The notes: a model not told the origin generated them from the letters alone. Shown: positions 6,369 through 22,670, numbered from the stretch's first letter. The stretch is DNA of 64,000 bases from an uncultured Candidatus Saccharibacteria bacterium (GCA_964598205.1 CAZRBB010000004.1:71156-135155); one strand, 5' to 3'. Translations and numbers: made by a program.

Positions 6369-7448
6369 ATGAAAACCAAAAGAAATAAATTTTTATTTTT
6401 TGTATTCGCTCTTTTTTTTGTATTTTTTTTGACTGGAAAAAACTGTTTAGCACTGGTTGTTTCCCCAACAACAGTTGAGCTTACAGCCAATCCTGGACAG
6501 ATGATTGATTTTAATATTGAGATTCATAACGATAATTCAAAAGAAAGAGAGGAATTTATTACATCGATTCTGAATTTTAATGCCAAAGACAATGAAAATG
6601 GAGAACCAAAATTTTTTTCTGGGGATGATTTTCTAGGAGAAGATTTGGCTTCTGAGTGGTTGGAAATAGAGAGTGTTCCCTTGGTGGTAGAGCCAAGCGC
6701 TTGGCGGAAAATTCCTATAACAATCAAGATTCCCCAAAAGGTACAGCCCGGCGGTTATTATGTGGCAGTGTTTTTTGGACCAAAGAAAAATGAAGAAAAA
6801 AGCAAAGATAAAATTTCTAGCGTTTCTTATTACGCCGGATCGTTAGTATTGATCAATGTTTCTGGAGAGACGATTCAAGGAGGGGCGGTTAAGGAATTTT
6901 CTACAGAAGGCGGAAAAAAGTTTTTTCGTAACTTGCCAATAGGGTTTTTTACTCGAATAGAAAATTCTGGCAATCTTCATTTTCGTCCTGCCGGTAATGT
7001 GGAAATTAAAAATTTTTGGAACAAAAAAGTTGCCCAAATCCCAGTGATTAAATCTCAAACCGGGGGGAATATTCTGCCGGAAAGTATTCGTCGCTATAAT
7101 CTTAATTGGGAGAGCGCTTGTGGAGAGAAAGCAAACAAAAATTTTTTTAGTAGCGGATTTTTGGAGCGGGCAAACAGACAACGCCAAGAGTTTTATTTGG
7201 GTCGTTATGCCGCTGTTTTAACAGTAGTCCTACCCAACAAAGAAACGGGAACAGTGTCTATCTTTTTTTGGTTGATTCCAGCCGAGCTACTAACTGTGAT
7301 TTTGGTAGTGCTTATAATTTTGTGGGCACTAATTTATTGTTACAATCGCTGGATTGTTGGTTTTTTAAGGAGTCGCGTTAGGAAGGAACCAAAGAGAACT
7401 CCTATTAAAAGAAAAGAGAAAAAGCAAGATTATTTTTTGAGAAAATAG
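6369..7448 (+). CDS. Cell-surface protein with signal peptide and C-terminal TM anchor (DUF916/DUF3324-like architecture)
   Basis: 359 aa. N-terminal signal peptide, beta-rich ectodomain (VVSPTTVELTANPGQ...), a single C-terminal TM followed by a basic tail. Confidence 0.4.
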   Translation: MKTKRNKFLFFVFALFFVFFLTGKNCLALVVSPTTVELTANPGQMIDFNIEIHNDNSKEREEFITSILNFNAKDNENGEPKFFSGDDFLGEDLASEWLEIESVPLVVEPSAWRKIPITIKIPQKVQPGGYYVAVFFGPKKNEEKSKDKISSVSYYAGSLVLINVSGETIQGGAVKEFSTEGGKKFFRNLPIGFFTRIENSGNLHFRPAGNVEIKNFWNKKVAQIPVIKSQTGGNILPESIRRYNLNWESACGEKANKNFFSSGFLERANRQRQEFYLGRYAAVLTVVLPNKETGTVSIFFWLIPAELLTVILVVLIILWALIYCYNRWIVGFLRSRVRKEPKRTPIKRKEKKQDYFLRK

Positions 7449-7607: not shown

Positions 7608-10600
7608 GTGACAGTAAGAAAACAAAAAAAAGGTGGGATTAATGGTTTCCAACCCTTGGGGGTTTGGGGGCTTTTTATTGTTTTGGGAATCAGCTTGGTG
7701 ATGGTTTTTGGAGGGAATTCGGTTTGGGGAGCGGCGGAGGGGACGGAGGGGACGGAGATAACGGAGGGGACGGTCTGGGGTCGTTTTTGGAGTGGTGTTG
7801 ACCAAGGGGTAACGAGTTTTAAAGAAGGATTTTTAGCAACAACGAATAATCTAAAAAGCTATTTGGGAACAAGTGGACAGTTTATAGCTCGTTTTGGCAA
7901 GGAAAAAAACGAGAAAGAAGCCGAAGAATTGGCCAGCGTTATAGCTAGTCAAAAGATGGAAAAATGGTTGGAATGGTTTAGCAAGAACGGAGAAAGATTG
8001 GAGGAAATTGCTAACGGGGAAAATTTTAACAACCTGTATCTTTCTGGAGCAATAGATGGTCAGAATATTGCCAATAGAAGCTTGAATGGAAATCTTAAAA
8101 TAATTCCTGGATCCATTACCGGATTAGTAATTGCCAACGGTTCTGTTAGTAAAGAAGATATTCTTTGGCGGGGAATTACTTCTGTTAACTTACATGCCAA
8201 TGCGGTAACTACGAGAATTATTAAGGACGGAACTATTATCGGTGCCGATCTTTCAGATGATCTTAGTTTTTCTACTACGGGGACCATCCACGCTGACAAT
8301 ATTAATGGGAATCATTTAATAGTGAAAGATGGTTCAACGCTTTCTGGAGATACGGTTTTTAATGGGGGGGCTTTTTCCCATATGGGAACAACTTTTCTAG
8401 TCAACGAGACTGGAGATGCCACTTTTGATTCTGATGCGGTCACCACTTTTTCTGGGTCAAGATTGGAATTGGTAGCGGACGGTGGCGGGGTAACGATTAC
8501 TTATCCCGATGGTCAAACTTTTCAATTAAAAGATAGAACTACTCGAATTGAAACTTTAGCCAACGGTTCTTTGATTTTAGGAAATGATTCTGACGCTACT
8601 ACCGTGGACGGTTCGGTGATTAATCTTTCTGGGAATACCGTTATTAACGGGACCATTACTGGGAATATTACCGATAACGCTAGTAATGCTTTTGATTTAC
8701 AAGAAGGAACGAATAAGTATCTCAACATTTCTACTGTGGACGGTTCGGAAAAAATTGATTTTGGTAACACAACCCTTAATCCGAGCTATGAATTTTTAGG
8801 AACGGGAGCAACCACTTTGGGCGGTAATTTAACAGTGAATGGAGCGTTAATAGTTGGAGGAGGTACCGCGGTGGCTGGCCATTTTTTACCAGGCTCAAAC
8901 AATGTTTACAATCTGGGTAGTAATACTTACCGCTGGGCTAATCTGTATTTGGGTGGGGAAACATTACATTTAGGAGCTTCGATTACCGACGAAGCGGTTG
9001 TTAGTTATGACACAACTATCAATATTTTAAACATTGGTACTGATGCAACCACCAACGGCGACATTGCTTTTTTTAGTGATGATCTATACCTAGATAAGTC
9101 TAGCGGCAACGTTGGCATTGGGACAACGGACCCGGGGGCGAAGTTGGATGTTGCTGGTGTGGCAACTTTCCGGGGAAACTTGCTTTTTTCCACCGACAAT
9201 ACACTAGACATTGGAGCTAATGGCGCAACACGACCAAGAACAGGGTACTTTGGGACATCGGTAGTCGCACCTAATTTTACCGGCCTGGCTTCCAGCGCTA
9301 CTATTCTTGCCACTGCTCGCGATCTTTATGGCTTTAGTTTTAATGGTTCTGTTGGTACTGTATCGGGAATAAATATTATAGCTAGCAGTTATGGCGGAAC
9401 AGGCAATGGTTTTACGAAATTTACTGGACCGACCACAGCAGAAAAAACTTTTACATTGCCCGATGCCAATGCCATTATTGCCAGAACTGATGCTGGACAA
9501 ACTTTTACTGGAGTCAATATTTTTACTTCCCCAACCTTCACCACTAGCATTGTTCCGACCATAAACGATGGAACAACCATTGGAACAACCACTTTGCAAT
9601 TTTCCGATTTATTCCTCGCTTCGGGAGCAACTATTAACTATGCTAACGGTGATACAACTCTCACTCACTCAACCGGAATTTTGACATTGGGAACAGGAAC
9701 ACTGAAAATCACCACCCCTACCAACACCGCCACCAGCGTGGCGACGATTGACGGAATGCAGACTCTGACGAACAAGACATTGACTGCATCTAACAATACT
9801 TTAGGTGGAGTGACTATGACATTGGGAACTGATGCTACTGGTGATATATATTATCGCAATGTTTCTGGATATTTGACTAGATTAGGAATTGGAACTTCTA
9901 ATCAGATTCTCCATGGTGGAACTACTCCAAGTTATTCTGCTATTTCTCTGACTGGAGATATTACTGGAATTTTACCACTAGCCAATGGTGGCACCAATAA
10001 AAATATAACGGCTTCATCTGGAGCAATCATATTCTCTGATACTGATTCAATGGAACTTACTCTAGTTGGGTCTTCTGGGCAAATTTTGGTTTCTCAAGGA
10101 GCAGGTACGCCTATCTGGTCAACTCCCACCTATCCTTCTGCTTCCGGATCTGCCGGGAAAATTATTCGTTCCAATGGCGCTAACAATATCTATTCAACAG
10201 CCGCTTTTGCCGATACCTACACCGCCTCAAATCTTCTATATTCAAACGGCGACAACACCGTGCAGGGATTGGCTACGGCCAATAACGGCGTTCTCATTAC
10301 CGGTGTCACCGGTGTTCCTTCTATTTCTTCTACTATTCCAGTGGTTACACAACAAAATATTACCAATGTAAATTCAGCCTTGGTTACAGGACTTCTTCAA
10401 ATTACCACCACGACTGGCGCGCTCACGAGTGTTACCACTTCGGCTGGAATAGACGCTCTCATTTCCAACAATACCGGTTCGGGGCTTTTGGTTTTCAACG
10501 ACGGTCCGACTTTTATTGCCCCGACTCTCGGTGTGGCTACCGCCACTTCAATTAACGGACTTACGATCAATACCACCACCGGCACGCTAGCAATTTCCAA

Positions 10601-13600
10601 TTTAAAAACGCTCACCGCTTCCGATTCCACAACTCTTGCCACCAATGCGATTACTCTCGCTGGTGGGGAAGTCATAACTTTTTCACCAACTAACGCTTTG
10701 TCACTTTTGACGACTGGAGCAACAAGTGTGACTTTGCCAACATCTGGAACATTGATCAGTACCGACCAAACAGTGGGGCAAACTATTGGATTAACTGGAT
10801 CAAGATTAACAAAACTTTGGGCAACCAACATTGAATCAACCAATGCTCCGACAGTTTTAGGTTCAGCAGTTTATTATACTGGTGGTACGGATGTTTCTTT
10901 GGCTGATGGTGGTACCAACGCTTCCCTTACTGCCAATAATGGAGGAATTTTTTATTCCACGGGAACAGCTGGAGCAATTTTAGCAGGAACATCGACAGCC
11001 AATCAAATTTTGCTTTCTGGTTCATTAACAACACCAGTGTGGTCCACCGCCACCTATCCGGTTACGACGATGGCTAATCAATTATTATATTCTTCAGCGC
11101 TTAACACGGTTACTGGTCTAACTACTGCCAACAGTGGTGTTTTGGTTACCAACGCCACTGGAAATCCTTCTTTCTTGGGCTCTCTGACTAATGGACAATT
11201 AGTCGTTGGTTCTACTGGAGCCATTCCAGTTTTAGCCACTTTGACCGGTACAGATAATCAAATCGTGGTGACCAATGGCGCTGGCACAATTACTCTTTCC
11301 ACCTCTCAAAGTATTAATACCACTTCCACTCCGCAATTCGCTAGAATAGGCTTGGGGGTTTCCGCTGACACTACGAACATTCTCACTGCTACATCTGTTT
11401 CTACTACCGATCTTTCAAAGACGCTAAATATCTCTCATACTGGAGCCATCACTGGCACGGGATACGCCGGATACTTTTCCAAAACTGGAGCATCAACTAC
11501 TAATGTTGGGCTTTATACGATTGCCACTGGGGCAACTAATAACTATGCGTTGCAAATAGATTCTGCCGTAGCTGGAGCGAATAATTATACAATCTATGCT
11601 AATGGCACGGCACAAAGTTATTTTGCGGGCAACGTCGGCATCGGGACGACAGCCCCTTCTTCATTATTAAGTGTTGGCGGTGCAGGTTCCAGTTCTTATA
11701 GTATTTCTGGGATAGGTTCTCAAAGTGGAATTTATGGCTCTGCAAGTGCTGGTTATACTGGAGTGTATGGTCTTTCTACATCTGGTGCTGGTATCTCTGG
11801 CTCTTCCACGAGTGGAGTGGGTGGTTATTTTACTTCTTCTGTTGGTTACGCACTTATTACAGGAAACGGCAACGTCGGCATCGGGACGACGGCACCAGAA
11901 TCAAAACTGCATGTTTCAGCAGATGGTGCTGTTCAAATTTTCATGGGCGATCTTTATAGTGATCTATCATATAATACGCCAGAATTCTCAGGCAGGAGAG
12001 CCAGAGGAACTCAATCATTGCCATCCGCAGTATTGGCGGGTGATACGCTAATGCTTGTTGGGGCTAGAGGATATATGGATACTGGGGGGTTTAGCGCAAA
12101 TAAAGCCGTCATACACATGTATGCTGCGGAAAATTTCACTTCTACTACAAACGGAACTTATATCACTTTTTCAACAACACCTATCGGATCAACATCAAGA
12201 GCCGTAAGGATGACAATAGGGGATGCTGGCAACGTCGGCATCGGGACGACGAGTCCGGGGGCGAAGTTAAATATAAAAAGTAATAATGATGCTTCTGCTT
12301 TAAAACTTACATCATCTCTTGGTGGTACTATGATGGATCTTTACGAACTATCAGATGGAAGAATTCAATTCAATCTTTATGATGGGAGCGGAATTACCAA
12401 GGTACGATTAGATGGAAATGCAGATAATTACATAACCGGTGGCAACGTGGGAATCGGGACGACGGGACCTTCGGCCCTCTTGCATGTTGGATCCGGCGGT
12501 ACTCCCGGCTACGCAACTACGGGTGACGCTTATTTCCAAAATGATGTTGAAATTGACGGAACACTTTATACCGCAGGATTATCGGTACTTGGCAGCATTA
12601 TTCCTGCAACGGACGACACTTACGATCTTGGTTCATCGTCTTACCGCTGGAGAGATCTTTATCTTGGTCCAACATCATTACACCTAGTTTCAACGGTTGG
12701 GGAAACAACAACGGCCAGAGATTGGAAGTTGTCTATTCAGGAAACAGACGGCACAAGCGAAGGCAATTTGCGTATTATGGAAGGCGCAACGGAAATAATG
12801 AACATACAACCCGGCGGCAACGTCGGCATCGGGACGACGGGACCGGGGGCAAAACTGAATGTAGTAGGTGGTTCCGCTGGGACAAATACAGGTATTTTTA
12901 GAATCGAAAACAATACTAATGCTTCTGCTAACACAGGTGCATCAGTTGAGTTTTACAGTTACGATAACACGCCAGCTCAGGTAGAAATGGGACGAATTGG
13001 CACATTGGTAACAACTGGAACTGCCGGAGCGGCTTCATCTGATTTAGCTTTCTCGGCACGCAATAGTGGAACATTGACGGAATGGATGAGAATAAAAGGT
13101 AGCGGCAACGTCGGCATCGGGACGACGGGACCAGCGACAAAATTACAAATAGCTGGTACGGGTTCGACAAATGGACTTTCTTTTGGTGATGCGGCAGATG
13201 TGATTTTATATCGAAATTCAAGTACGCAACTTAGAATGAATAGTGATTTGCGGACAAGTGGTTCTAGCGGCTTGACTGTGGATGGGCCTGCTTTTTCTCT
13301 TGGTGGATTTAACACGCTTTATAACGCCGCAAGTGGTTTGCAATTTAAAGCGAATGCTACTTCGCAGATGCAACTATTTGCATCAGGTGGTTTAGCACTT
13401 GGTAGTACTTATTGGTCAACTGACCCAGGGGCAGGGAATTTAACAATACAAGGCAACGTCGGCATCGGGACGACGGCACCGGGGGCAGCCTTGGATGTGA
13501 TTGGAACAGGGATATTTCAATATGCGGCCTTGGAAAATGAAGGTGAATTTCTAAGAATATCGAGAACCTCTCAGACAACTCGATATAGTTCTTTATGGGC

Positions 13601-16600
13601 GAGACAGTCAGTTACAAAAGCGAATAATTATATTGGATTTAGAGTGTATGATGGTAATTCGACAGATTATGCTCCTGTAGAAATGATGAGAATAACAGGA
13701 AGTGGCAACGTCGGCATCGGGACGACGAATCCGACTGCGAAATTGGAAATAGGGGGAGATAATAATGGACTAAAAATATCTGGAGCAACATATGTTAGTG
13801 CTGAATTATTAGATGGTGGTAGCAATGATTCAGGGTACTTATCTCTTTATCGTGCTGGAGTTAAGGCTTTTTCTATTGGTGCTAATGACACATATTTCAA
13901 TTACGGCAACGTCGGCATCGGGACGACGGGACCGGCACAGAAACTGCATGTGTTCGGTGCGACGCCTCAAGTGGAAATTGACTCGTCATCTGGCACTAAC
14001 CCTTCATTGTTCTTAACAACGACAAATGACACGACTCAAGGAATAAAGTTTAGTTATGACCAAGGGGCTGGGGACGGGTATATTGATAATGTTTGGAACA
14101 ATGCTGCTGGAGATTTATTTTTTAGACTACGCACTCTCGGAACTCCAGTGGATGTCTTGTCGTTAAAAGCGAGCGGCAACGTCGGCATCGGGACGACGGC
14201 ACCGGTAAGCAAATTTCATCTATATGATAGCACGGGCTCCGGGTTAAGTATTGATACGGGAAATGGTTATGCGAATTTGTATTTCTTGGACGGTGGAGTT
14301 GAAAGATGGAGGTTTAGAAACGATGGTGCGACCGATGACTTTCACTTAATGGAAGATGCATCGGACATACGTCTTACTGTTCAAGAAGGCGGCAACGTCG
14401 GCATCGGGACGACGAGTCCACTGTCAAGTTTCTATGTAGGTAGTACTACTCCAACTAGTCTTTCCTACGCCCTTGGTAATTGGAACTCATACAAGGCAGC
14501 CATTGTAGATACATTCAATTATGCATCGGTTGATGATGAACATACTTCGTTTTTATCAGACCTGACCGTGAATTCGACCGTAAATAGTAGTGAACAGATG
14601 GCAGCGATTGCAGCATCAATAACAGTTAGTACGGCAAGTACGGCAGATACTGGGTCACTTAGGACTATATGGTCAAATTTGCAACATGATGGTACTGGAA
14701 CAGTTGCTGCCGCTCGGTTGTTTAATGGTGAGTTGGCAAATAAATCCACTGGCACAATGACTAAGGCGGATGGACTTGGTGTAGCTTTTAGAAATACAGG
14801 AGGGGGAATAATCAGTGATTTGAGAGGTGTTAACATTATTGACCTAGTAAACACTAGTGGGACAATCACTAATACATATGGGATATATACTGGCGACTTG
14901 TCATTAGGTACTCAAACGAATATGCCATTTTCTTTTTATGCCTCTGACTCTGATACATACAATTATTTTGCGGGCAACGTCGGCATCGGGACGACGGCAC
15001 CGGTAAGCAAATTTCATCTATATGATAGCACGGGCTCCGGGTTAAGTATTGATACGGGAAATGGTTATGCGAATTTGTATTTCTTGGACGGTGGAGTTGA
15101 AAGATGGAGGTTTAGAAACGATGGTGCGACCGATGACTTTCACTTAATGGAAGATGCATCGGACATACGTCTTACTGTTCAAGAAGGCGGCAACGTCGGC
15201 ATCGGGACGACTGGGCCATTGGTAAAGTTGCATATAACTACTGATGATGTTAATGGTAATGGCATACGAATTCAAAATGATAATGCTCTTGGCACTTGGA
15301 AATATGGAACGCTCGCTATGATGGGGCAAACTGGAAACAGCATTGTTGATTGGCCAAATGCTTTAGTAATTGAAGGTGCTGGCAATGGGGGAACTGTTAT
15401 TAGTAGTGCAGCAGGGGATATTAAATTTAATCCTGGTAGAATACAAGGAATGATAGTAAAGCAAACAACAGGCAACGTCGGCATTGGGACGACCGCGCCG
15501 GGATTTAGATTAGATGTTCCAGCGGTTTCTGCTAGCAACTATGATGTTGCAAAAATAGGCGGATTTGTAATTGCAAGAGCAGGGACTGATGTTAGTAATT
15601 TACTTATAACTGGTGCAAGTTGGGCTGGTGGAAGTACATTAACAGCTACCGCAACTACTTATGCCAGTTATCAACAAACTAGCGGAAATCATTATTTTTA
15701 TACTGCTACGGGACAAACCGTGGGAAATGCAGTTACTACTGTTATTCCAATGACAATAGTGGGTAATGGAGCAGTGGCCAATACTTTGTATCTAACTGCG
15801 GGCAACGTCGGCATCGGGACGACGAGTCCGACTCAAGCATTACAAATTACAGGAAGTCAATTTCAACAGCTGTCTTTACAAACAACTGGTGCTTATACAA
15901 CAAAAACTTACTTTGCGAATTATGCTGCAATAGGGAACTTGAACTCGTATTGGTCTATGAATAGAAATATTGGGACTGGTGTATTTGATAATATTGAACT
16001 GCCAGCGGCGGCAATCGCAATGAATGGCTCTACGGGAAATTCATCTATTCAATTTTATACTGCAGCCGCAAATAACACCGCACCATCTGTGCGTATGACA
16101 ATCGACAATAGTGGCAACGTCGGCATCGGGACGACGAGTCCGGGTGATAAGTTGAGTGTAGATGGCACAACTTATGGCACAACTATATCTGTCACAGGTA
16201 GAAGTGCATCATGGCCTGGCAATGCGACGGATTTGTCAAAACTTAATTTTAATGGATTAGTAGGTGCTTCTGGTGGAACACTGGCTTCTATAGCAACGAG
16301 GTTTGGGAATTCTGGTTCTGATTTTAGTAGCCAACTTCTTTTTTCAACAACTGACGCTTCCTTTGTTTTACAGGAAAGGATGAGAATCAATAACCTCGGC
16401 AACGTCGGCATCGGGACGACAGCACCGGGGGCATTATTGCACGTCGGACCAAACTCAGTTGTGTACCAACCAACCGTTGGAACTAAACAGCTAATTCTCT
16501 CTGGTGCTGGAAATACAAACGCAATTGATAATGGGACAATGATGATTTTTAGTGGTGGGTATAATTCAACGCTTGCACAAAATGCGACTTATGGTGCAAT

Positions 16601-18164
16601 TGCTGGTTTAAAAGAAAATGGGACCGACAATATTGCGTCTGGTTATTTAGGGTTTTACACCGGTCGTACTGGAGATGCCAATGCCTTGGAAAAAATGAGA
16701 ATTACAAGCACTGGCAACGTCGGCATCGGGACGACGGGACCGGTAGAGGCTTTGGATGTTTTGGGAAAAATAAAAGCAAGCAGTTCGGTTCAAGCAAATG
16801 GCGTAGCAATAGGTGGATTAAACGGCCTTTATTATAGTTCTTCCACAAGGGGTAAATATGGTTTTGGTTCTGTGACAGCGCTAGGAGCTTATCCACTCGA
16901 TTTATCTTCTGGTGATGTTACGACGTATACTGATGGATATATCAAATTCAGTACCGCCGGAACAGAAGCGATGCGAATTCAATCAAGTGGCAACGTCGGC
17001 ATCGGGACGACGGGACCAGGTGGTAGACTTCATATCGCAGATGGAATTACGGGCAATGACGCGACATATCGGGGAAAGTTAATTATTGAGAGCGGGCAAA
17101 CAGATAATGCCAGTAATGGATTGGAATTTAAAGCCAGCGCAGGGGCGAGCGGGTATGGTTATCGTTTGGCAACCGTTTATCCTACTTCTGGCATTGACCT
17201 TCGTTTTCAATCCAGACAAAATTCAGCTACTTGGTCTGATGTAATGACAATAAATACAGTCGGCAACGTCGGCATCGGGACGACGAATCCGGGGTATAAG
17301 TTGCAAGTTAGACCGGCTACTGATGTCAATCTTGGTTTTGGAAGTAATGCTGTTGGTGGTTTGCTAAATGTGGCTAATGATGCCGCATCAGTTGTTGATT
17401 TGACAACTAATGCGTGGGAATATCACTTTCAATCAAATGGAAACGAAAGGGTTACAATTCTCAACGGCGGCAACGTCGGCATCGGGACGACGGGGCCGGG
17501 GGCACGGTTAAATGTAGTTGATGTAAATTATGGATTTAATAATGTTGGAAATCTATTTATTCGCACTTCTGACGCACAGGCGGCAGACATTGGTGGAATG
17601 ATTGGACTGGGAGGTATTGGAAATGACGCAGGAACGGGAATTACTTCCTTTGCGACAATAGCAGGAAGAAAAGAAAATGGAACAACTTCAAATTACAGTG
17701 GATATTTGCAATTCTCAACATCTAATCCAGGAAGTACAAAGAATGAATGGATGCGAATCACAAGCACCGGCAACGTCGGCATCGGGACGACGGCACCCTC
17801 CCAAAAACTTCATGTTGAAGGTCACTGTCTTACCGGCGACACCCTAATCGCTGTTCGTCGTAAAAAAAGACGAAATTCTGAAAACGGAGAAAATGAAATT
17901 GACCCAGATGACCTAGACTTTTCTTTATCCGATTTTGCGTCTTCTAGCGATCAAGAAACAGAAGACTGTATCCTAGTACCAATTTGCAACATTCTCCCCG
18001 GAGACGAGGTTTTATCGCTCAATGAGGAGACAAATCGCACCGAGTATCACCCCATAAATGGCCTCCTAGACATGGGCATTCAAGAAATTTATCAAATTCG
18101 CACTAAGTCTGGACGGGTAATTCGGACTACCGGAAATCATCCGTATCTGGTAAAAATGAACTGA
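7608..18164 (+). CDS. Giant (3518 aa) tail-fibre-like repeat surface protein = N-extein fused to the N-terminal half of an intein
   Basis: N-terminal signal/TM anchor. Tail-fibre-type motifs (ILPLANGGTN...). About 23 modules each starting GNVGIGTT(A/S/G/N)P..KL.V. Last 112 aa are Hint N-terminal blocks A (CLTGDTLI) and B (TGNHPYL). Confidence 0.85.
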   Translation: MTVRKQKKGGINGFQPLGVWGLFIVLGISLVMVFGGNSVWGAAEGTEGTEITEGTVWGRFWSGVDQGVTSFKEGFLATTNNLKSYLGTSGQFIARFGKEKNEKEAEELASVIASQKMEKWLEWFSKNGERLEEIANGENFNNLYLSGAIDGQNIANRSLNGNLKIIPGSITGLVIANGSVSKEDILWRGITSVNLHANAVTTRIIKDGTIIGADLSDDLSFSTTGTIHADNINGNHLIVKDGSTLSGDTVFNGGAFSHMGTTFLVNETGDATFDSDAVTTFSGSRLELVADGGGVTITYPDGQTFQLKDRTTRIETLANGSLILGNDSDATTVDGSVINLSGNTVINGTITGNITDNASNAFDLQEGTNKYLNISTVDGSEKIDFGNTTLNPSYEFLGTGATTLGGNLTVNGALIVGGGTAVAGHFLPGSNNVYNLGSNTYRWANLYLGGETLHLGASITDEAVVSYDTTINILNIGTDATTNGDIAFFSDDLYLDKSSGNVGIGTTDPGAKLDVAGVATFRGNLLFSTDNTLDIGANGATRPRTGYFGTSVVAPNFTGLASSATILATARDLYGFSFNGSVGTVSGINIIASSYGGTGNGFTKFTGPTTAEKTFTLPDANAIIARTDAGQTFTGVNIFTSPTFTTSIVPTINDGTTIGTTTLQFSDLFLASGATINYANGDTTLTHSTGILTLGTGTLKITTPTNTATSVATIDGMQTLTNKTLTASNNTLGGVTMTLGTDATGDIYYRNVSGYLTRLGIGTSNQILHGGTTPSYSAISLTGDITGILPLANGGTNKNITASSGAIIFSDTDSMELTLVGSSGQILVSQGAGTPIWSTPTYPSASGSAGKIIRSNGANNIYSTAAFADTYTASNLLYSNGDNTVQGLATANNGVLITGVTGVPSISSTIPVVTQQNITNVNSALVTGLLQITTTTGALTSVTTSAGIDALISNNTGSGLLVFNDGPTFIAPTLGVATATSINGLTINTTTGTLAISNLKTLTASDSTTLATNAITLAGGEVITFSPTNALSLLTTGATSVTLPTSGTLISTDQTVGQTIGLTGSRLTKLWATNIESTNAPTVLGSAVYYTGGTDVSLADGGTNASLTANNGGIFYSTGTAGAILAGTSTANQILLSGSLTTPVWSTATYPVTTMANQLLYSSALNTVTGLTTANSGVLVTNATGNPSFLGSLTNGQLVVGSTGAIPVLATLTGTDNQIVVTNGAGTITLSTSQSINTTSTPQFARIGLGVSADTTNILTATSVSTTDLSKTLNISHTGAITGTGYAGYFSKTGASTTNVGLYTIATGATNNYALQIDSAVAGANNYTIYANGTAQSYFAGNVGIGTTAPSSLLSVGGAGSSSYSISGIGSQSGIYGSASAGYTGVYGLSTSGAGISGSSTSGVGGYFTSSVGYALITGNGNVGIGTTAPESKLHVSADGAVQIFMGDLYSDLSYNTPEFSGRRARGTQSLPSAVLAGDTLMLVGARGYMDTGGFSANKAVIHMYAAENFTSTTNGTYITFSTTPIGSTSRAVRMTIGDAGNVGIGTTSPGAKLNIKSNNDASALKLTSSLGGTMMDLYELSDGRIQFNLYDGSGITKVRLDGNADNYITGGNVGIGTTGPSALLHVGSGGTPGYATTGDAYFQNDVEIDGTLYTAGLSVLGSIIPATDDTYDLGSSSYRWRDLYLGPTSLHLVSTVGETTTARDWKLSIQETDGTSEGNLRIMEGATEIMNIQPGGNVGIGTTGPGAKLNVVGGSAGTNTGIFRIENNTNASANTGASVEFYSYDNTPAQVEMGRIGTLVTTGTAGAASSDLAFSARNSGTLTEWMRIKGSGNVGIGTTGPATKLQIAGTGSTNGLSFGDAADVILYRNSSTQLRMNSDLRTSGSSGLTVDGPAFSLGGFNTLYNAASGLQFKANATSQMQLFASGGLALGSTYWSTDPGAGNLTIQGNVGIGTTAPGAALDVIGTGIFQYAALENEGEFLRISRTSQTTRYSSLWARQSVTKANNYIGFRVYDGNSTDYAPVEMMRITGSGNVGIGTTNPTAKLEIGGDNNGLKISGATYVSAELLDGGSNDSGYLSLYRAGVKAFSIGANDTYFNYGNVGIGTTGPAQKLHVFGATPQVEIDSSSGTNPSLFLTTTNDTTQGIKFSYDQGAGDGYIDNVWNNAAGDLFFRLRTLGTPVDVLSLKASGNVGIGTTAPVSKFHLYDSTGSGLSIDTGNGYANLYFLDGGVERWRFRNDGATDDFHLMEDASDIRLTVQEGGNVGIGTTSPLSSFYVGSTTPTSLSYALGNWNSYKAAIVDTFNYASVDDEHTSFLSDLTVNSTVNSSEQMAAIAASITVSTASTADTGSLRTIWSNLQHDGTGTVAAARLFNGELANKSTGTMTKADGLGVAFRNTGGGIISDLRGVNIIDLVNTSGTITNTYGIYTGDLSLGTQTNMPFSFYASDSDTYNYFAGNVGIGTTAPVSKFHLYDSTGSGLSIDTGNGYANLYFLDGGVERWRFRNDGATDDFHLMEDASDIRLTVQEGGNVGIGTTGPLVKLHITTDDVNGNGIRIQNDNALGTWKYGTLAMMGQTGNSIVDWPNALVIEGAGNGGTVISSAAGDIKFNPGRIQGMIVKQTTGNVGIGTTAPGFRLDVPAVSASNYDVAKIGGFVIARAGTDVSNLLITGASWAGGSTLTATATTYASYQQTSGNHYFYTATGQTVGNAVTTVIPMTIVGNGAVANTLYLTAGNVGIGTTSPTQALQITGSQFQQLSLQTTGAYTTKTYFANYAAIGNLNSYWSMNRNIGTGVFDNIELPAAAIAMNGSTGNSSIQFYTAAANNTAPSVRMTIDNSGNVGIGTTSPGDKLSVDGTTYGTTISVTGRSASWPGNATDLSKLNFNGLVGASGGTLASIATRFGNSGSDFSSQLLFSTTDASFVLQERMRINNLGNVGIGTTAPGALLHVGPNSVVYQPTVGTKQLILSGAGNTNAIDNGTMMIFSGGYNSTLAQNATYGAIAGLKENGTDNIASGYLGFYTGRTGDANALEKMRITSTGNVGIGTTGPVEALDVLGKIKASSSVQANGVAIGGLNGLYYSSSTRGKYGFGSVTALGAYPLDLSSGDVTTYTDGYIKFSTAGTEAMRIQSSGNVGIGTTGPGGRLHIADGITGNDATYRGKLIIESGQTDNASNGLEFKASAGASGYGYRLATVYPTSGIDLRFQSRQNSATWSDVMTINTVGNVGIGTTNPGYKLQVRPATDVNLGFGSNAVGGLLNVANDAASVVDLTTNAWEYHFQSNGNERVTILNGGNVGIGTTGPGARLNVVDVNYGFNNVGNLFIRTSDAQAADIGGMIGLGGIGNDAGTGITSFATIAGRKENGTTSNYSGYLQFSTSNPGSTKNEWMRITSTGNVGIGTTAPSQKLHVEGHCLTGDTLIAVRRKKRRNSENGENEIDPDDLDFSLSDFASSSDQETEDCILVPICNILPGDEVLSLNEETNRTEYHPINGLLDMGIQEIYQIRTKSGRVIRTTGNHPYLVKMN
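17826..18161 (+). other. Split-intein N-terminal fragment (IntN, about 112 aa) at the C-terminus of the giant protein
   Basis: Cys1 in CLTGDTLIAV (block A). TGNHPYLV (block B, conserved T..H). Followed directly by a stop codon. No intein C-terminal blocks in this ORF. Confidence 0.8.
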
Positions 18165-18193
18165 ACTTAAAAATTTTTAACTAAGTTTTCTTT

Positions 18194-19753
18194 ATGTTTG
18201 GCGGTGGATTTTTGAAAAATTTTAGGGGCACTTGTATCACGCTTGCCAAACGAGTAGTCGATTTATTTCAAAGTCGTGATACCGAACCCTTGCCGATTCG
18301 TGATACGAAACCAGTCCTTAAAAAAATACGGAAAACCAAAAATTCCCAAAATTCGGTCAAAATTTTAGCCAAAGAAAAAATTCCCATGGGCGTGGAAATT
18401 TTAGAACCGGAACCTAGGCCCAATCTTTTGGAAATTTTTTGTCCGTATTGCTCTGGCAAAAATTTTGTAAAACGCGGTTTACGGCAAAAGAAAAAAGAAA
18501 AAGTTCAACTTTATCTTTGCCGTGATTGTCGGCGGTCGTTTACTCCCGGAGCGGTGAAAGGTCGGCATTATCCAATGGAGGTGATTCTTAACGCCATTAG
18601 TTTATATAACCTGGGGTACAGTTTGGAAAAGGCGGGAAAGATGGCATCTAAAATAGAGGGATTCAATAGGGAAGGAAAAAAAGAGCAGGGGGCGGGACTC
18701 AAAGGGACAAGGTTCCAGAGGGGACTGCTTACAACATCGGGCAACTTCGGGAGCGGGATGATCGGCAGCGGGACGGTGCTAAGTTGGGTGAACCGCTACC
18801 GTCATCTCTGTGCTTTTTCCCGAATGCGGGAATTTGCCATAAAAATGCTACCGCCGAATGAAATGATTTCTTCGGCTACCCTAGCGCATCGGCAACTCTA
18901 CCGATTCCGGCACCATCGTGCCAAAACAATCTTGATTATTAAAGAAGATTTTAAGAACAGTCCCTTTTGGCCATTAAAAGAATTTTTGGATTTAGTGCCG
19001 GTGGAATGTCCACATCAATATTTTCAAGAAGGTTTGCGGGCGTCAGAAGCGCCGCTTACTTTTTCCAAAACGGAAATGATTGTGCGGGGCAAAAATAATT
19101 TTGCCAACAAAATGGCTAAGTTTGCGCTAGAATCGGCCACTAAAGCCAAAGATCGCCACGATGTTTTACAGCGATTTATGTTGGCCAACGATTCGGTAAC
19201 AGTAGCTACAGAAGTGCCGATTTATCTTCGTCGGGAAGATTTAGCACACATGCAAACACAGTTGGGGTTTGAGCTGTATAAAAAGAGGATTCGTTCTAGA
19301 AAGAAGGAAGACAAGGCCCAAGGGGGGGCGAGGCCCAAGGGGGACTACTTACAACATCGGGCAACTTCGGGAGCGGGAAGATCGGGCAGCGGGACGGCAT
19401 TGGAACTTTTTCCCCTAGAAGAAATACCCAAATTAATTACCGGTCACATTGATTTTGTGCAGATTAGAAACGGAATGATCCATATTTTGGATTACAAGCC
19501 AAAAGCCGCCAAAGAAAGACCGATTGAACAATTAACCATTTACGCGTTGGCGCTTTCCCGCTTAACTGGCTTACGGGTGTATCATTTTAAGTGCGCTTGG
19601 TTCGACGAAAAAGATTATTTTGAATTTTTCCCACTGCATGTGGTTTCCAAGCCGGGAAAGAGGCGTTATCGGCGGAAAATTCGGACGATTGAAGGGACTT
19701 ATAAATTAAACGACGATCCGTTAAAGGTGGCGAATATTAAGGCTCAAGGCTAA
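18194..19753 (+). CDS. Putative free-standing homing-type nuclease: N-terminal C4 zinc ribbon (IS1/IS1595-transposase-like) plus C-terminal PD-(D/E)xK RecB/Cas4-family nuclease motifs
   Basis: CPYCSGKNF...x17...CRDCRRSF zinc ribbon. C-terminal GHIDFV (motif II), ILDYKPK (D/ExK), QLTIYALAL (QxxxY). Lies between the two intein halves. Contains out-of-frame 56-bp direct repeats and a G7 tract, so the ORF may be composite or decaying. Confidence 0.5.
   Translation: MFGGGFLKNFRGTCITLAKRVVDLFQSRDTEPLPIRDTKPVLKKIRKTKNSQNSVKILAKEKIPMGVEILEPEPRPNLLEIFCPYCSGKNFVKRGLRQKKKEKVQLYLCRDCRRSFTPGAVKGRHYPMEVILNAISLYNLGYSLEKAGKMASKIEGFNREGKKEQGAGLKGTRFQRGLLTTSGNFGSGMIGSGTVLSWVNRYRHLCAFSRMREFAIKMLPPNEMISSATLAHRQLYRFRHHRAKTILIIKEDFKNSPFWPLKEFLDLVPVECPHQYFQEGLRASEAPLTFSKTEMIVRGKNNFANKMAKFALESATKAKDRHDVLQRFMLANDSVTVATEVPIYLRREDLAHMQTQLGFELYKKRIRSRKKEDKAQGGARPKGDYLQHRATSGAGRSGSGTALELFPLEEIPKLITGHIDFVQIRNGMIHILDYKPKAAKERPIEQLTIYALALSRLTGLRVYHFKCAWFDEKDYFEFFPLHVVSKPGKRRYRRKIRTIEGTYKLNDDPLKVANIKAQG
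18721..18776. repeat. 56-bp direct repeat, copy 1 (inside the nuclease ORF)
   Basis: gggactgcttacaacatcgggcaacttcgggagcgggatgatcggcagcgggacgg. Near-identical copy at 19341-19397. The two copies are read in different frames, so the repeat is at DNA level. Confidence 0.8.
19341..19397. repeat. 56-bp direct repeat, copy 2 (one extra G), preceded by a G7 homopolymer at 19322-19328
   Basis: gggactacttacaacatcgggcaacttcgggagcgggaagatcgggcagcgggacgg. Confidence 0.8.
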
Positions 19754-19931
19754 ATTCAACCAACGCTTTTTTGATCTCCTCTTTTTTGGTAAAAAGATTA
19801 AAATCCAAAGATTGCCGGTGCCCAATGTGAAGAGCAATGGCGGTACCGCCAGCCAAACCAAAATCTCGGGAAAAATCACTAATTAATGGCAAGATTTTTA
19901 CTTGTTCGGAAGTTAAAATCTCAGTGTGCAT
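19737..19931 (-). pseudogene. N-terminal remnant of an AbiEii-family (DUF1814) nucleotidyltransferase toxin gene, truncated
   Basis: 64-aa ORF with LAGGTAIALHIGHRQSLDFNLF, resembling the AbiEii N-terminal GGTAL...R.S.DiDf motif. A stop follows and no downstream continuation exists in any frame of 60 aa or more. Overlaps the 3' end of the nuclease ORF. Confidence 0.35.
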
Positions 19932-20317
19932 GTTTGTTAAAATAAAGAGTGAAATAATTTTTTATTTCTGGTCGGTAATTGGTTCTTTTTTTTGATTTTT
20001 TGGTTTGGTTTTTAAAGATAGTCGCTATTTTTTGGAGGCCAACCACGGTCAAAAGTTTTTAAAAATCCTGCCAATCGCCGTAATTCAAAACGGTTTCTGT
20101 GATTGATTCAACAGACAAAACGGAAGGGTCTTTAACTGACCAAAAAAGCATTTTTCTTTGGACAGCAAATTGTTTCAGCTCTTTATCCATGATAGAATAA
20201 TAGCATATTTGGTTGGAAAAATCATTGGTTTGTGATTAAAGTTTTGTTTTTAATATCTTCTTAAATTATTTTGGTAATATTAAGTTAAGATTTTTGGTGA
20301 GGAGATGATAAAAATCA

Positions 20318-20767
20318 ATGTATCGCAATTATGTAAAAAGAGCGGTTAAGAATTTTACCGATTTAGATGTTTACCAAAAGCTTTTGGAAGGAAGTGTTTT
20401 TGTGGCAAAAGTGGTGGTGCCGGCTTTTTGGGAAAAACAAACGGAGACAAAAAAAGACAAAACGGCGGAGCTGATTATAGAAAAGCTAACAGTGCATACT
20501 CTTTATCTTCCAGAGCTGATTGCCAAGGCTCATTCTGTTCGTTTTGGAGCGGGGGAGCAATGTTTGGCATTTTTAGAAGAAGCAATGCTTGGCTGTAATT
20601 TAGCGGTGGTCTATTTGGAACAAACGCGGGATATTTGCGAAACTGGGTTAGAAACCGAACAATTTTCCGAACAGATTAAAAAATATTTTCAGGTAAGACA
20701 AAAAGTGTTAAACTTGCAAAGAGTTTGGAAGAAATTTATAGAAATCAAAAAACAAGAACAAAACTAA
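20318..20767 (+). CDS. Four-helix-bundle protein (TIGR02436 / 23S-rRNA-IVS-protein-like; Avd-like fold)
   Basis: 149 aa, all-helical. N-terminal FTDLDVYQK...resembles the F.DL.VWQKA signature of this family. Stop lies 4 nt before the IntC gene start. Confidence 0.4.
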   Translation: MYRNYVKRAVKNFTDLDVYQKLLEGSVFVAKVVVPAFWEKQTETKKDKTAELIIEKLTVHTLYLPELIAKAHSVRFGAGEQCLAFLEEAMLGCNLAVVYLEQTRDICETGLETEQFSEQIKKYFQVRQKVLNLQRVWKKFIEIKKQEQN

Positions 20768-20771
20768 AATT

Positions 20772-21059
20772 ATGTTTGGTTTTTTAAAGAAAGTTGCTAA
20801 AAAATGGCTCAAGGTTTCCCAGTTAAAAGTGGGAGCAAAAATTGCTGTGCCCAGAGCAGCGGCAATGGCTGGTTATGGTGGACTGGTTGCTAATGATTCC
20901 TTACTAGAAGAAGGCGAAGGGGATTATATGTGGGACGAAATTACCGAAATTAAAAAAGTTGGTCGAGAAAGAGTTTACGACATTGAAGTAGACGGAACGC
21001 ATAATTTTATTGCGGGGAATATTAATAATAAATTATTCGGCGGAATTTTTGCTCACAAC
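20772..21059 (+). other. IntC (C-terminal intein half; 96 aa from the first ATG, 44 aa if translation starts at 20928)
   Basis: Terminal His-Asn (AHN) followed by +1 Thr. Block F VYDIEVDGTHNFIA. Confidence 0.75.
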
Positions 21060-22670
21060 ACCTATGTCACCGGCAACGTCGGCATCGGGACGACGACACC
21101 GACCTACCGTCTTCAACTCCCCAATGTAGGCGATGCTACCGGGCAGGGCCAAGCCAATGCTTGGGTAGCATATTCAGATAGAAGTTTAAAAGAAGAGGTT
21201 GATCCAATCACTAATGCTCTAAACAATGTTCTTCTCTTACAAGGAGTAGACTTTACTTGGAAGGGTCAAGGAATTAGAAGCTCTGGCTTTATTGCTCAAG
21301 ATGTAGAAGAGGTTATTCCTAGTCTAGTATCCACAGACATTAACGGAATTAAGTCTTTAGACTATGGAAGATTTACTCCTTACCTAGTAGAAGCAATCAA
21401 AACCCAACAACTAAACATTACTACTAACACGAGCCGTCTTGATCTCCTAGATCAAAAGATAATGGAAGAGGCGAGTGGTTCTTTAATCCTTAATGCTACT
21501 GGCAATAGTATCCAAGCCAAAGATCTCTTAGACGCTACCTTACAAGGTGTAGCTACTAAAGTTAAATCCGGCACTATTTCCGACACTGACTTTATTTTAC
21601 CGATCAATGGTTTAATGGCAGTAGACTCAGCTAATGGAAGGGTCTATTTCCGTTACGACAATGATTGGCATTATGTTAATCAAACAGGAGGCTTTCAGAT
21701 TCCTAATTACGAAACCGCTCCGTACGAAAAGCTATCTCAAAACTCTAAGATTAAAGAAAATGAAGCTCTTCCTTTTGAATCAAGTAACTATCCTCACTAC
21801 ATAACAGAAAAGTTAACTCCCGGAGAGCTTCTGATTCCTTTTGTAGATGAATACCTTCCAGACGGAGCTGTCCATGGTCTGTATGCTAGATTCGAAGATG
21901 TTAAAGAAAAAATGTTTACTCAAGAAAAGAGCCAGTTAGTAGATCTAGCCCTTAAAACCGCAGAGAACATAGAAACTATTAAAGAGTTTAAAGAATCAGT
22001 AGATAAAAACCTAGCCGTAATTTCTTCTAACTTTGAATCATTAGATAACAACATTGACCGAAACGAAAAGAATGTTGAAAGCTTAGAAACCAGAACAGAA
22101 GCTACAGAAGCTAAAAATAATGATCTATCTTCCCGAGTTTCTGTCTTAGAGTTTTCTCTTTCTGAATCCCAACTAGCCGGAGAGCGCTTAGAGTTCCTTA
22201 CCCAAATCTTAAACCCAGCTGAAGACGGAAGCCTGACTATTTACAATGATCTGAATTTAGAAGGCAGATTGAGCGCCGAGGAAGTGGTGCTTAACAAGAT
22301 CACTATTAAGACCGATTCCGAAGAAACCCGCACGGTAGGGCAGGCGGTGATTGTTGGATTAGCTAAAGATGAAGATGCTGATGGCAAAGACGACAACACC
22401 GGAGCCGATGGTAAGAGCGTGATTATAAAAACCAGAATGGTTACGGAAAGTTCCAAGATTTTTTTAACCTTTGAAAACAATCCTCAATCATTGTATTGGG
22501 CAGAAAAAGTAACCAATGAATCTGGTGCTCTTATTGGTTTTAAGATTCTTCTAAACAGTCCGGCGTCGGCGGATATTAAAGTTTCTTGGTGGATTCTAGA
22601 AGAAGACGATCCGGCCAAGCAAACAACAAGCACTCCGGTCATTCCTTCTTCCCAATCAGAAGCACTTTAA
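20772..22670 (+). CDS. Split-intein C-terminal fragment (IntC) fused to C-extein: final GNVGIGTT repeat, peptidase-S74 intramolecular chaperone domain, coiled coil and C-terminal beta domain
   Basis: Blocks F/G: ERVYDIEVDGTHNFIAGN ... GIFAHN | T. The C-extein starts TYVTGNVGIGTTTP using the same 23-mer as the giant gene. SDRSLKEEV...GFIAQDVEEVIPSLV...LDYGRFTPYLVEAIKTQQ matches the S74 (CIMCD) consensus. Internal starts at M32 and M53 (20928) would give an IntC of 44 aa. Confidence 0.8.
   Translation: MFGFLKKVAKKWLKVSQLKVGAKIAVPRAAAMAGYGGLVANDSLLEEGEGDYMWDEITEIKKVGRERVYDIEVDGTHNFIAGNINNKLFGGIFAHNTYVTGNVGIGTTTPTYRLQLPNVGDATGQGQANAWVAYSDRSLKEEVDPITNALNNVLLLQGVDFTWKGQGIRSSGFIAQDVEEVIPSLVSTDINGIKSLDYGRFTPYLVEAIKTQQLNITTNTSRLDLLDQKIMEEASGSLILNATGNSIQAKDLLDATLQGVATKVKSGTISDTDFILPINGLMAVDSANGRVYFRYDNDWHYVNQTGGFQIPNYETAPYEKLSQNSKIKENEALPFESSNYPHYITEKLTPGELLIPFVDEYLPDGAVHGLYARFEDVKEKMFTQEKSQLVDLALKTAENIETIKEFKESVDKNLAVISSNFESLDNNIDRNEKNVESLETRTEATEAKNNDLSSRVSVLEFSLSESQLAGERLEFLTQILNPAEDGSLTIYNDLNLEGRLSAEEVVLNKITIKTDSEETRTVGQAVIVGLAKDEDADGKDDNTGADGKSVIIKTRMVTESSKIFLTFENNPQSLYWAEKVTNESGALIGFKILLNSPASADIKVSWWILEEDDPAKQTTSTPVIPSSQSEAL
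21174..21420 (+). other. Peptidase S74 / C-terminal intramolecular chaperone autoproteolytic domain
   Basis: YSDRSLKEEVDPITNALNNVLLLQGVDFTWK...SGFIAQDVEEVIPSLVSTDINGIKSLDYGRFTPYLVEAIKTQQLN. The Ser-Lys dyad motif SD(R/K)xLK is conserved. Confidence 0.8.

Follow-up and report, generated by a model that had tools for sequence, protein, structure and literature searches.

A 23-nucleotide (nt) DNA word, GGCAACGTCGGCATCGGGACGAC, is repeated throughout the gene for a giant surface fiber of an uncultured bacterium, and we found that it is conserved as DNA beyond what the encoded protein requires. The gene lies at positions 7608 to 22670 of a 64,000-nt stretch (GCA_964598205.1 CAZRBB010000004.1:71156-135155), which we refer to as the window. 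An initial annotation, made from the sequence alone, had described at least 24 modules, each headed by this word, with at least 19 perfect copies and some close variants. We observed 21 exact matches in the 64 kb, all on the plus strand, and none in 100 dinucleotide-preserving shuffles. Allowing up to three mismatches gave 24 matches, all within 7608-22670, with the extra three at 9105 (three mismatches), 12441 (two), and 15471 (one). Both counts of the initial annotation were thus borne out. It had also considered that the word might be just as frequent outside the gene; no copy with up to three mismatches was found in the 64-kb window outside the fiber gene, and this, together with the empty shuffles, led us to reject chance or a generic genomic repeat.

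Twenty of the exact copies lie within 11628-17791 in the first of two fiber open reading frames (ORFs; 7608-18164), and one lies at 21072-21094 in the second (20772-22670, 632 amino acids [aa]). The last copy had been expected after an intein at 21068; it is there, but it starts 4 nt later, at 21072. A spacing of 200 to 330 nt had been proposed, and most spacings do fall between 201 and 375 nt, but one gap of 582 nt and one of 2,523 nt after the first copy lie beyond it. All spacings are multiples of 3, and all 24 copies are direct, none inverted. Every copy is in frame: its first 21 bases encode GNVGIGT, and its last two open the codon of another Thr.

The codons of the word are GGC, AAC, GTC, GGC, ATC, GGG, and ACG, whose usage elsewhere in the same gene is 14, 27, 8, 14, 14, 18, and 16%, respectively. 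They are the rare codons of the gene and of the genome. At the silent positions of the copies, 162 of 168 wobble bases were identical and 6 differed, which agrees with the earlier impression of undrifted synonymous sites and GC-ending codons in an AT-rich gene. The invariant Pro two codons 3' of the word uses four codons (CCG in 16 of 24 copies), a conserved Leu near the word uses four, and an Ile upstream of it uses three. Thus, synonymous drift has occurred beside the word and not within it. The module bodies between the copies differ, as had been noted: they are 67 to 194 aa long and have a median amino acid identity of 27%, one identical pair excepted. Because the neighboring silent sites have drifted and the bodies are only about 27% identical, a recent amplification is excluded, and the recent modular expansion offered initially does not hold. 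An Rfam scan of the window found one tRNA only and nothing in the fiber gene.

The initial annotation had alternatively suggested gene conversion or use of the word as a recombination handle, and this fits what we observed of repeats in the gene and its relatives. The identical pair is a duplication that runs precisely from word to word (Table 1). In 93 loci with at least four motifs, 16 of the 31 intragenic repeats of at least 120 nt began at a motif, versus 2.6 expected under random shifts, and 5 had both ends at motifs, versus 0.3 expected. Blocks are also shared more widely (other loci are given as L numbers). A 329-nt block common to two different fiber genes of one genome begins at the 23-mer (L429), a block common to both halves of a fractured gene begins at the word (L433), and modules common to different contigs begin at the motif (L189/L197 and L002/L053). 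We then drew an unbiased sample through a degenerate scan of viral contigs for any encoding of the motif, which gave 244 motif instances in 187 encodings. In this sample, the silent-site difference between motifs was 0.39 within loci and 0.64 between loci. Some other loci have a consensus of their own: L311 has an AT-rich word, L273 has one that is a single base from the 23-mer, and L338 does so partly. The smaller difference within loci and these separate consensuses are a signature of concerted evolution. Taken within genes, both the freezing of these codons and their use as module junctions are well supported.

A second assembly, Joint Genome Institute (JGI) contig Ga0485167_0000026 from sample 3300044991, has the same module order, with two A/G single-nucleotide polymorphisms (SNPs) across the gene, at 10349 and 14232. 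The SNP at 14232 (A in the window, G in the JGI contig) is a Thr/Ala change inside the duplicated module. Since it affects one copy, the duplicates are identical in the window and one base apart in the JGI contig, a difference that possibly arose through a conversion event. Short-read Logan contigs from three sequencing runs (L359, L360, and L361) begin with the 23-mer at 21072 or beside it. The first base of L361, directly before the 23-mer, is T, in contrast to C at 21071 of the window; the difference is a SNP or reflects another junction immediately 5' of that copy.

The word is not confined to this gene. We scanned a one-genome-per-species collection and a collection of viral contigs and found the exact 23-mer in at least 119 genome stretches and at least 120 viral contigs. 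Among the genome matches listed, phyla of the candidate phyla radiation (CPR) and DPANN archaea dominate, and Bdellovibrionales, Omnitrophica, Elusimicrobia, Planctomycetes, and others also occur. In the archaeal loci, long ORFs contain the 23-mer in frame, and the GC content of the genomes is as low as 28%. The same word in hundreds of fiber genes of other phyla, archaea, and viral contigs makes this a family-wide phenomenon. The exact word made up 2.0% of the unbiased viral sample, versus 0.024% expected from independent position frequencies, and it was the best "center" of the encoding space. A control word favored by independent codon frequencies was found in 53 viral loci, versus at least 120 for the exact word, and an alternative encoding of equal GC content was found in 4, at least 30 times fewer. 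We therefore rejected GC bias alone as the cause. An origin of the word in high-GC DNA was rejected as well, because the GC content at third codon positions (GC3) in the flanks of exact copies averages about 0.4 and ranges from 0.07 to 0.69, and because of the low-GC archaeal genomes. Among the word variants, C>T and G>A account for 180 of 331 differences, so the variants resemble decay under AT-biased mutation. We found no literature match for "GNVGIGT." The identity of the word across domains and its tie to a huge nuclease family, described below, appear to be undescribed.

From its sequence, the product of the locus is a giant trimeric surface fiber or adhesin of the kind formed by the mosaic adhesive trimer (MAT) fibers of Bdellovibrio and by S74 tail fibers. 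The modules matched solved domains of Bdellovibrio MAT fibers in phmmer searches against the PDB (8oml, 3.3e-13; 8ol4, 6.6e-08; 8on4, 1.9e-06; 8ond, 7e-06; 8ojn, 7.6e-05). PHROG tail-fiber families matched the modules and the C-terminal ORF, and Pfam Peptidase_S74 (PF13884) matched the second ORF at 1.3e-13, with the SDxxxK motif present as SDRSLK at Ser135. In Bdellovibrio MAT fibers, a capping loop with the consensus V-G-G/N-pi-x-x-P-x-x-x-L lies at the edges of trimeric beta-helices (PMC10769870). The window protein has 24 copies of GNVGIGTTxPxx(K)L, the capping-loop feature of the MAT/S74 superfamily. The motif encoded by the 23-mer is this published loop, which the initial annotation had not recognized; the kinship to trimeric phage tail fibers with a C-terminal S74 domain that it had seen is supported. 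[quoted passage not shown] After splicing, the fiber would consist of 3,406 aa of N-extein and 536 aa of C-extein, 3,942 aa in all, close to the 4,000 aa estimated before. The long C-terminal part that follows the S74 domain is presumably released.

Relatives of this protein are abundant. Three modules searched with phmmer against 1.84 billion representatives gave 43,219 relatives, 10,357 of them at 1e-10, and the best are proteins of 2,000 to 7,700 aa with 10 to 50 matched stretches each. Giant multimodule fibers are thus common, though uncharacterized, and at the protein level the window fiber is a new and very large representative of the known MAT/S74 fibers. Two larger relatives are a fractured fiber of more than 5,200 aa (L433, 4914-21434; 1,692 plus at least 3,536 aa) and a contiguous fiber of 7,453 aa with 37 motif copies and a gene GC3 of 0.24 (L525, 3001-25362).

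The gene is interrupted by an intein, as the initial annotation had said, but the intein is in fact split, and 2.6 kb of inserted genes separate its halves. The first ORF stops at 18162, a nuclease ORF follows at 18194-19753, and the C-half starts at 20772. We found the features of a class 1 intein: Cys1, a block B TxxH, a C-terminal HN, and Thr at position +1 (FAHN/T). Pfam Intein_splicing matched both halves below its curated cutoff, and TIGR01443 matched above its own. We infer that the two ORFs are joined through trans-splicing by the split intein into a protein of about 3,942 aa. The same arrangement is kept in five other loci (L104, L021, L429, L433, and L434), which argues for intein function; in L104 and L021 the order is intein N-half, nuclease, small ORF, and intein C-half. 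Contiguous related inteins, one to four per gene, are present in L014, L020, L022, L145, and others. At every N-terminal junction read, the intein begins 11 residues past the motif (GNVGIGTTxPxxKLHVxGx/C). We found no literature on inteins in CPR fiber genes. A fractured gene with a split intein is a known but rare encoding, here in the new context of a structural gene. Exact 23-mers bracket the intein and cassette (17769-21094); the distance between their starts, 3,303 nt, is divisible by 3. Through one crossover at this pair, intein and nuclease would be excised in frame, and an excised circle with one 23-mer could in principle reenter at any other copy.

The 519-aa protein encoded between the intein halves was assigned as a nuclease through Pfam PDDEXK_1 and an IS1-type zinc ribbon, and it is a candidate homing endonuclease. 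Its predicted structure has a predicted local distance difference test (pLDDT) score of 58, with weak fold matches to RecB/AddA, Cas4, and MGME1, none with an E value below 0.001. Neither the Pfam nor the fold search matched a recognized homing-endonuclease family (e.g., the Vsr-like EDxHD). We found more than 3,243 members of the nuclease family, almost all of them in Patescibacteria. Five homologues picked by protein similarity alone all lie within or directly after giant fiber genes, and three of the five lie inside the same split intein. The 149-aa ORF that accompanies the nuclease has homologues that adjoin it in L104, L021, L061, L050, L111, L008, and L114, one of which has a weak similarity to the four-helix 23S_rRNA_IVP family. 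A 64-aa AbiEii-like fragment (E value of 8e-4, below the Pfam cutoff), likely a remnant, is located between this ORF and the nuclease; a full AbiEii gene is present near the cassette of L434. Elsewhere, the cargo around the constant nuclease varies and includes four-helix 23S_rRNA_IVP, Bro-N, and NYN-domain proteins (L427, 6509-7732; L433, 11489-12880; L061, 1398-1907). Genes for Y1 tyrosine transposases (IS200-like, or associated with repetitive extragenic palindromes) lie near 23-mer-bearing fiber genes in seven loci (L104, 5829-6527; L429, 16810-17463; L112; L058; L053; L064; and L024), with none in the window.

Some of these cassettes also contain a mini-element of about 45 nt that resembles the word. 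We found one to three copies per cassette in the window and in L021 (2708 and 2788), L111 (4099 and 4214), L427 (7947 on the minus strand, 8002, and 8314), and L434 (544), which makes 5 out of some 13 cassettes. The core of the element, GGCAAYNTCGGGAGCGGGACG, agrees with the 23-mer at 18 of 21 positions, silent positions included, with a constant T14>G difference. In the window the mini-elements encode Gly/Ser-rich linkers that are of low confidence in the predicted structure. No mini-element was found in 4.3 Mb of cassette-free loci, and the whole viral collection gave three matches only, which were chance-like and in GC-rich DNA. The mini-element suggests that nuclease cassette and 23-mer are connected at the DNA level.

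The explanation that we favor, by a little over an even chance when all of its parts are taken jointly, is an assembly of fiber, split intein, and S74 chaperone in which the 23-mer is a recombination junction kept by concerted evolution. The fiber would be made in two pieces from the ORFs at 7608-18164 and 20772-22670 and joined by the split intein; the S74 chaperone would then drive trimerization and probably remove itself by cleavage at Ser135 of the second ORF. At least 24 beta-helix/prism modules in a row make up the shaft, each opening with the capping loop GNVGIGTTxPxxKL. The 23 nt for this invariant motif are the sole DNA identity between otherwise diverged modules, so that homologous recombination would begin and end there, whether by unequal crossing-over, by short-tract gene conversion, or with incoming fiber DNA. 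Events at the word would remain in frame and would move, duplicate, or delete whole modules. The same events would overwrite mutations in the word, a concerted evolution that is probably GC biased. The seven silent positions would then be identical, and GC rich in an AT-rich gene, because recombination keeps overwriting their mutations. Of all this, we observed the anatomy, the frozen silent sites, the duplication from word to word, the repeats with ends at motifs in other loci, and homogenization within loci in general; that recombination causes the freezing, how it would be initiated, in which direction any bias would act, and that shuffled modules may serve host-range variation are inferences.

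Several observations did not fit well with this explanation. Neutral gene conversion predicts a consensus specific to each lineage, yet one word is the consensus in CPR, DPANN, Elusimicrobia, and viral contigs. Beside inteins that are only about 55% identical to each other, the word is unchanged, whereas the 34 nt separating the two differ. The rarity of the equal-GC encoding indicates that GC bias alone does not select the word. GC-biased conversion would account for AAC, ATC, and the GC richness but not for the choice of C versus G at five positions. Some long arrays, such as that of L338 (22 copies in 20 encodings), are hardly homogenized, so having many modules does not by itself cause freezing. 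With its 23 nt, the word barely reaches the length at which RecA-type recombination operates. Repeats could end at motifs because intact modules are favored by selection and not because breaks occur at the word. Finally, a metagenome scan with the N-terminal 499 aa found distant relatives only and no orthologue with another number of modules. Candidates for the source of the identity across lineages are frequent exchange in a communal fiber gene pool, selection for a common connector, and recognition by a protein. Co-conversion during intein homing was rejected as the sole cause, because the 34 nt from word to intein vary between loci where the word is constant.

A rival explanation is recognition by the nuclease. 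The 23-mer could be a site that the PD-(D/E)XK nuclease, as a homing endonuclease or a domesticated descendant of one, binds or cuts, or near which it does so, with repair from other modules or fiber genes; the word would be kept either through joint spread with the element linked to the nuclease or through a benefit to the host, which would shuffle modules by means of the breaks. We regard this as unlikely. The placement of the homologues in or after fiber genes speaks for it, as do the size of the family and its near confinement to Patescibacteria, although a shared CPR lineage effect may underlie the association. In loci found through the nuclease and not through the word, 31 of 51 motif copies are exact, compared with 2% in the unbiased viral sample. 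L424, likewise found without reference to the word, has four exact copies out of five. The nuclease-free 7,453-aa relative has a decayed word, with 5 of 37 copies exact and most others one to three transitions off. However, exact words dominate in L023, L145, L013, and L117, where no nuclease was seen in the stretches examined. The intein is always 11 codons past the motif, and 23 bp is a typical length for a homing site; yet 21 intact words coexist with an intact nuclease gene in the window, which would mean self-cutting unless it is controlled. The mini-element resembles the word in differing reading frames and is absent from cassette-free loci, but a minority of the cassettes have it. The RecB/Cas4-like fold of the putative nuclease is itself weakly assigned.

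A broader version of this idea, which we hold to be improbable, would make the 23-mer a dedicated recombination site of a communal pool of CPR, DPANN, and viral fiber genes. The PD-(D/E)XK nuclease family, whether carried in inteins or free-standing, would break the DNA via the word or the mini-element and so drive in-frame shuffling and the horizontal spread of modules. Mating-type switching by the HO endonuclease has a logic comparable to that of such a nuclease-powered system of adhesin cassettes.

Alternatively, the word could be selected at the level of RNA or translation, through slowing of ribosomes on rare codons at module boundaries or through a hairpin (CGTCG/CGACG). All seven codons are rare in the genome, but selection for rare codons predicts any rare codons and not one word, and in GC-rich hosts it predicts AT-ending codons, whereas the same word is found at a flank GC3 of up to 0.69. 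The S74 fibers fold from the C terminus after synthesis (PMC10769870), so cotranslational pausing has no obvious role. As for the hairpin, the 24-mer folds at -6.2 kcal/mol (z of -2.9), but with its natural flanks it folds no better than shuffles (z of -0.6 to -1.4), and the stem is largely forced by the amino acid motif (GTNG/CNAC). Positions 9 and 21 showed complementary covariation in an initial sample (odds ratio [OR] of 0.27, P of 0.004), but an independent one did not reproduce it (OR of 0.85, P of 0.8). We rejected both selection for a conserved hairpin and pausing on rare codons and consider this level of selection as a whole very unlikely.

That the identity is merely recent, through a burst of duplication with fast body divergence under positive selection or through an assembly chimera at short repeats, is hardly credible: one module pair is identical and Logan contigs do break at the 23-mer at 21072, but silent sites of invariant residues two to six codons away are scrambled (four codons each for Pro and Leu), the bodies differ in length and share about 27% identity, a repeat of 23 to 28 nt is shorter than the k-mers of the assemblers used, an independent assembly has the same order with 2 SNPs, and hundreds of unrelated contigs share the word.

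Table 1 Features of the fiber gene and of the cassette within its split intein (window positions)
Feature	Position	Strand	Remarks
ORF1	7608..18164	+	3,518 aa; N-terminal fiber precursor: hydrophobic anchor, N-terminal region, module array, intein N-half
N-extein	7608..17825	+	3,406 aa; residues ~17-37 hydrophobic, predicted signal anchor
Motif copy 1	9105..9127	+	Variant, 3 mismatches (GTT, ATT, ACA)
Motif copy 2	11628..11650	+	Exact
Motif copy 3	11868..11890	+	Exact
Motif copy 4	12228..12250	+	Exact; 41-mer 12228-12268 identical in L023, L229, L170, L095
Motif copy 5	12441..12463	+	Variant, 2 mismatches
Motif copy 6	12816..12838	+	Exact
Motif copy 7	13104..13126	+	Exact
Motif copy 8	13452..13474	+	Exact
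Motif copy 9	13704..13726	+	Exact
Motif copy 10	13905..13927	+	Exact
Motif copy 11	14175..14197	+	Exact
Duplicated module, copy A	14175..14413	+	239 nt, first base of one 23-mer to last base of next
Motif copy 12	14391..14413	+	Exact
Motif copy 13	14973..14995	+	Exact
Duplicated module, copy B	14973..15211	+	100% identical to 14175-14413; flanks unrelated
Motif copy 14	15189..15211	+	Exact
Motif copy 15	15471..15493	+	Variant, 1 mismatch (ATT)
Motif copy 16	15801..15823	+	Exact
Motif copy 17	16113..16135	+	Exact
Motif copy 18	16398..16420	+	Exact
Motif copy 19	16713..16735	+	Exact
Motif copy 20	16989..17011	+	Exact
Motif copy 21	17262..17284	+	Exact
Motif copy 22	17469..17491	+	Exact
Motif copy 23	17769..17791	+	Exact; end 34 nt (11 codons) before intein
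Intein N-half	17826..18161	+	112 aa; begins CLTGDTLI; block B TTGNHPY; stop 18162-18164
Nuclease ORF	18194..19753	+	519 aa; IS1-type zinc ribbon aa 83-117; C-terminal RecB/Cas4-like PD-(D/E)XK domain (predicted)
Mini-element copy a, inside nuclease ORF	18715..18765	+	Core GGCAACTTCGGGAGCGGGATG resembles 23-mer
Mini-element copy b	19335..19385	+	92% identical to copy a; other reading frame of nuclease ORF
AbiEii nucleotidyltransferase toxin-like fragment	19737..19931	-	64 aa; weak match
149-aa ORF accompanying nuclease	20318..20767	+	
Intein C-half	20772..21059	+	96 aa; own ATG; ends ...THNFIAG...IFAHN
C-extein	21060..22670	+	536 aa; TYVT, last capping-loop motif, S74 chaperone/protease, long C-terminal part
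Motif copy 24	21072..21094	+	Exact; 4 codons past intein; start 3,303 nt after copy 23
Peptidase_S74 intramolecular chaperone domain	21174..21329	+	SDRSLK catalytic motif begins 21174 (Ser135 of second ORF)

The host of the fiber gene, judged from its protein sequences, is a Moranbacteria-like bacterium of the Patescibacteria (CPR), since the EF-Tu in the window is 86 to 87% identical to proteins of Moranbacteria/Patescibacteria. The fiber gene immediately precedes ndk-rpsL-rpsG-fusA-tuf and the S10 operon. Thus, it is chromosomal. Just upstream of it are an RND-type efflux pair (ACR_tran and HlyD-like; 1579-6089, minus strand) and a 359-aa protein with a weak match to a WxL-interacting domain (6369-7448, plus strand). 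About 30 kb downstream, at 52409-56820, are genes for an AddA-like UvrD helicase that includes a PD-(D/E)XK nuclease domain and for the large subunit of exonuclease VII; with their functions in recombination and repair, these could process breaks in the array.

We compared the system with those already known. The closest are the MAT fibers of Bdellovibrio bacteriovorus, of the S74 subgroup (Caulton et al. 2024, PMC10769870). Like them, the window protein has homologous beta-helix/prism domains, the capping loop, and a C-terminal S74 domain with SDxxxK, and it would be, here as predicted from sequence, a surface fiber of a bacterium living on other cells. It differs in being three to four times longer, with 24 modules, in its CPR host, and in having its gene split by an intein that carries a nuclease cassette; for MAT fibers, no freezing of the motif's nucleotides has been described. 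Phage tail fibers and tailspikes (T5 pb1, K1F endosialidase) share the S74 domain, the PHROG matches, and an expected trimeric beta-helical shaft. Unlike these, the gene is chromosomal beside a ribosomal protein operon, has no phage genes nearby, and is of giant size. As in the fractured genes of Dassa 2009 (PMC2677866), the intein halves are on separate ORFs, split at the usual point of endonuclease insertion, with a nuclease between them. Here, however, the host gene encodes a structural fiber and not an enzyme of DNA synthesis or repair, a RecB/Cas4-like nuclease that has an IS1-type zinc ribbon takes the place of a Vsr-like one, there is an additional conserved small ORF, and the element is bacterial, chromosomal, and widespread in CPR.

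Rearrangement of adhesin genes at short motifs has precedents. In T-even phages, according to Tetart 1996/1998 as cited in PMC3157838, adhesins recombine at the His boxes of gp37 and the glycine-rich motifs of gp38; short conserved motifs between variable segments are crossover points there, at which adhesin segments are swapped or duplicated, as we propose here. The window motif is distinct in being frozen to every silent base, in having 24 copies per gene, and in being a word found across domains. Shufflons and the Min/Cin/Gin invertase systems likewise use short repeats within an adhesin gene as sites of rearrangement, with inverted repeats and a dedicated recombinase that rearrange the C-terminal segments of pilus or tail-fiber genes. 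In the window, by contrast, all 24 copies have one orientation, and the ORFs that we scanned there included no recombinase. Nor did we find features of a diversity-generating retroelement: there was no reverse transcriptase among the ORFs scanned (some small ORFs were outside the scan) and no pair of long, nearly identical repeats of the template/variable type.

Attachment to other cells is the way of life of CPR bacteria and DPANN archaea, and to our knowledge, how they recognize their hosts is largely unknown. The giant fiber family, with its more than 43,000 representatives, is an obvious candidate attachment organ. If the word truly is an exchange point, this would explain how adhesins diversify fast in tiny genomes and why short-read assemblies break in such genes, and it would provide a natural in-frame connector for engineering fiber modules. 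The fixed intein site and the large nuclease family make structural genes a new habitat for inteins and homing-type nucleases, and naturally split inteins from fiber genes may serve as tools. The identity of silent sites across domains is an evolutionary puzzle that is now directly testable.

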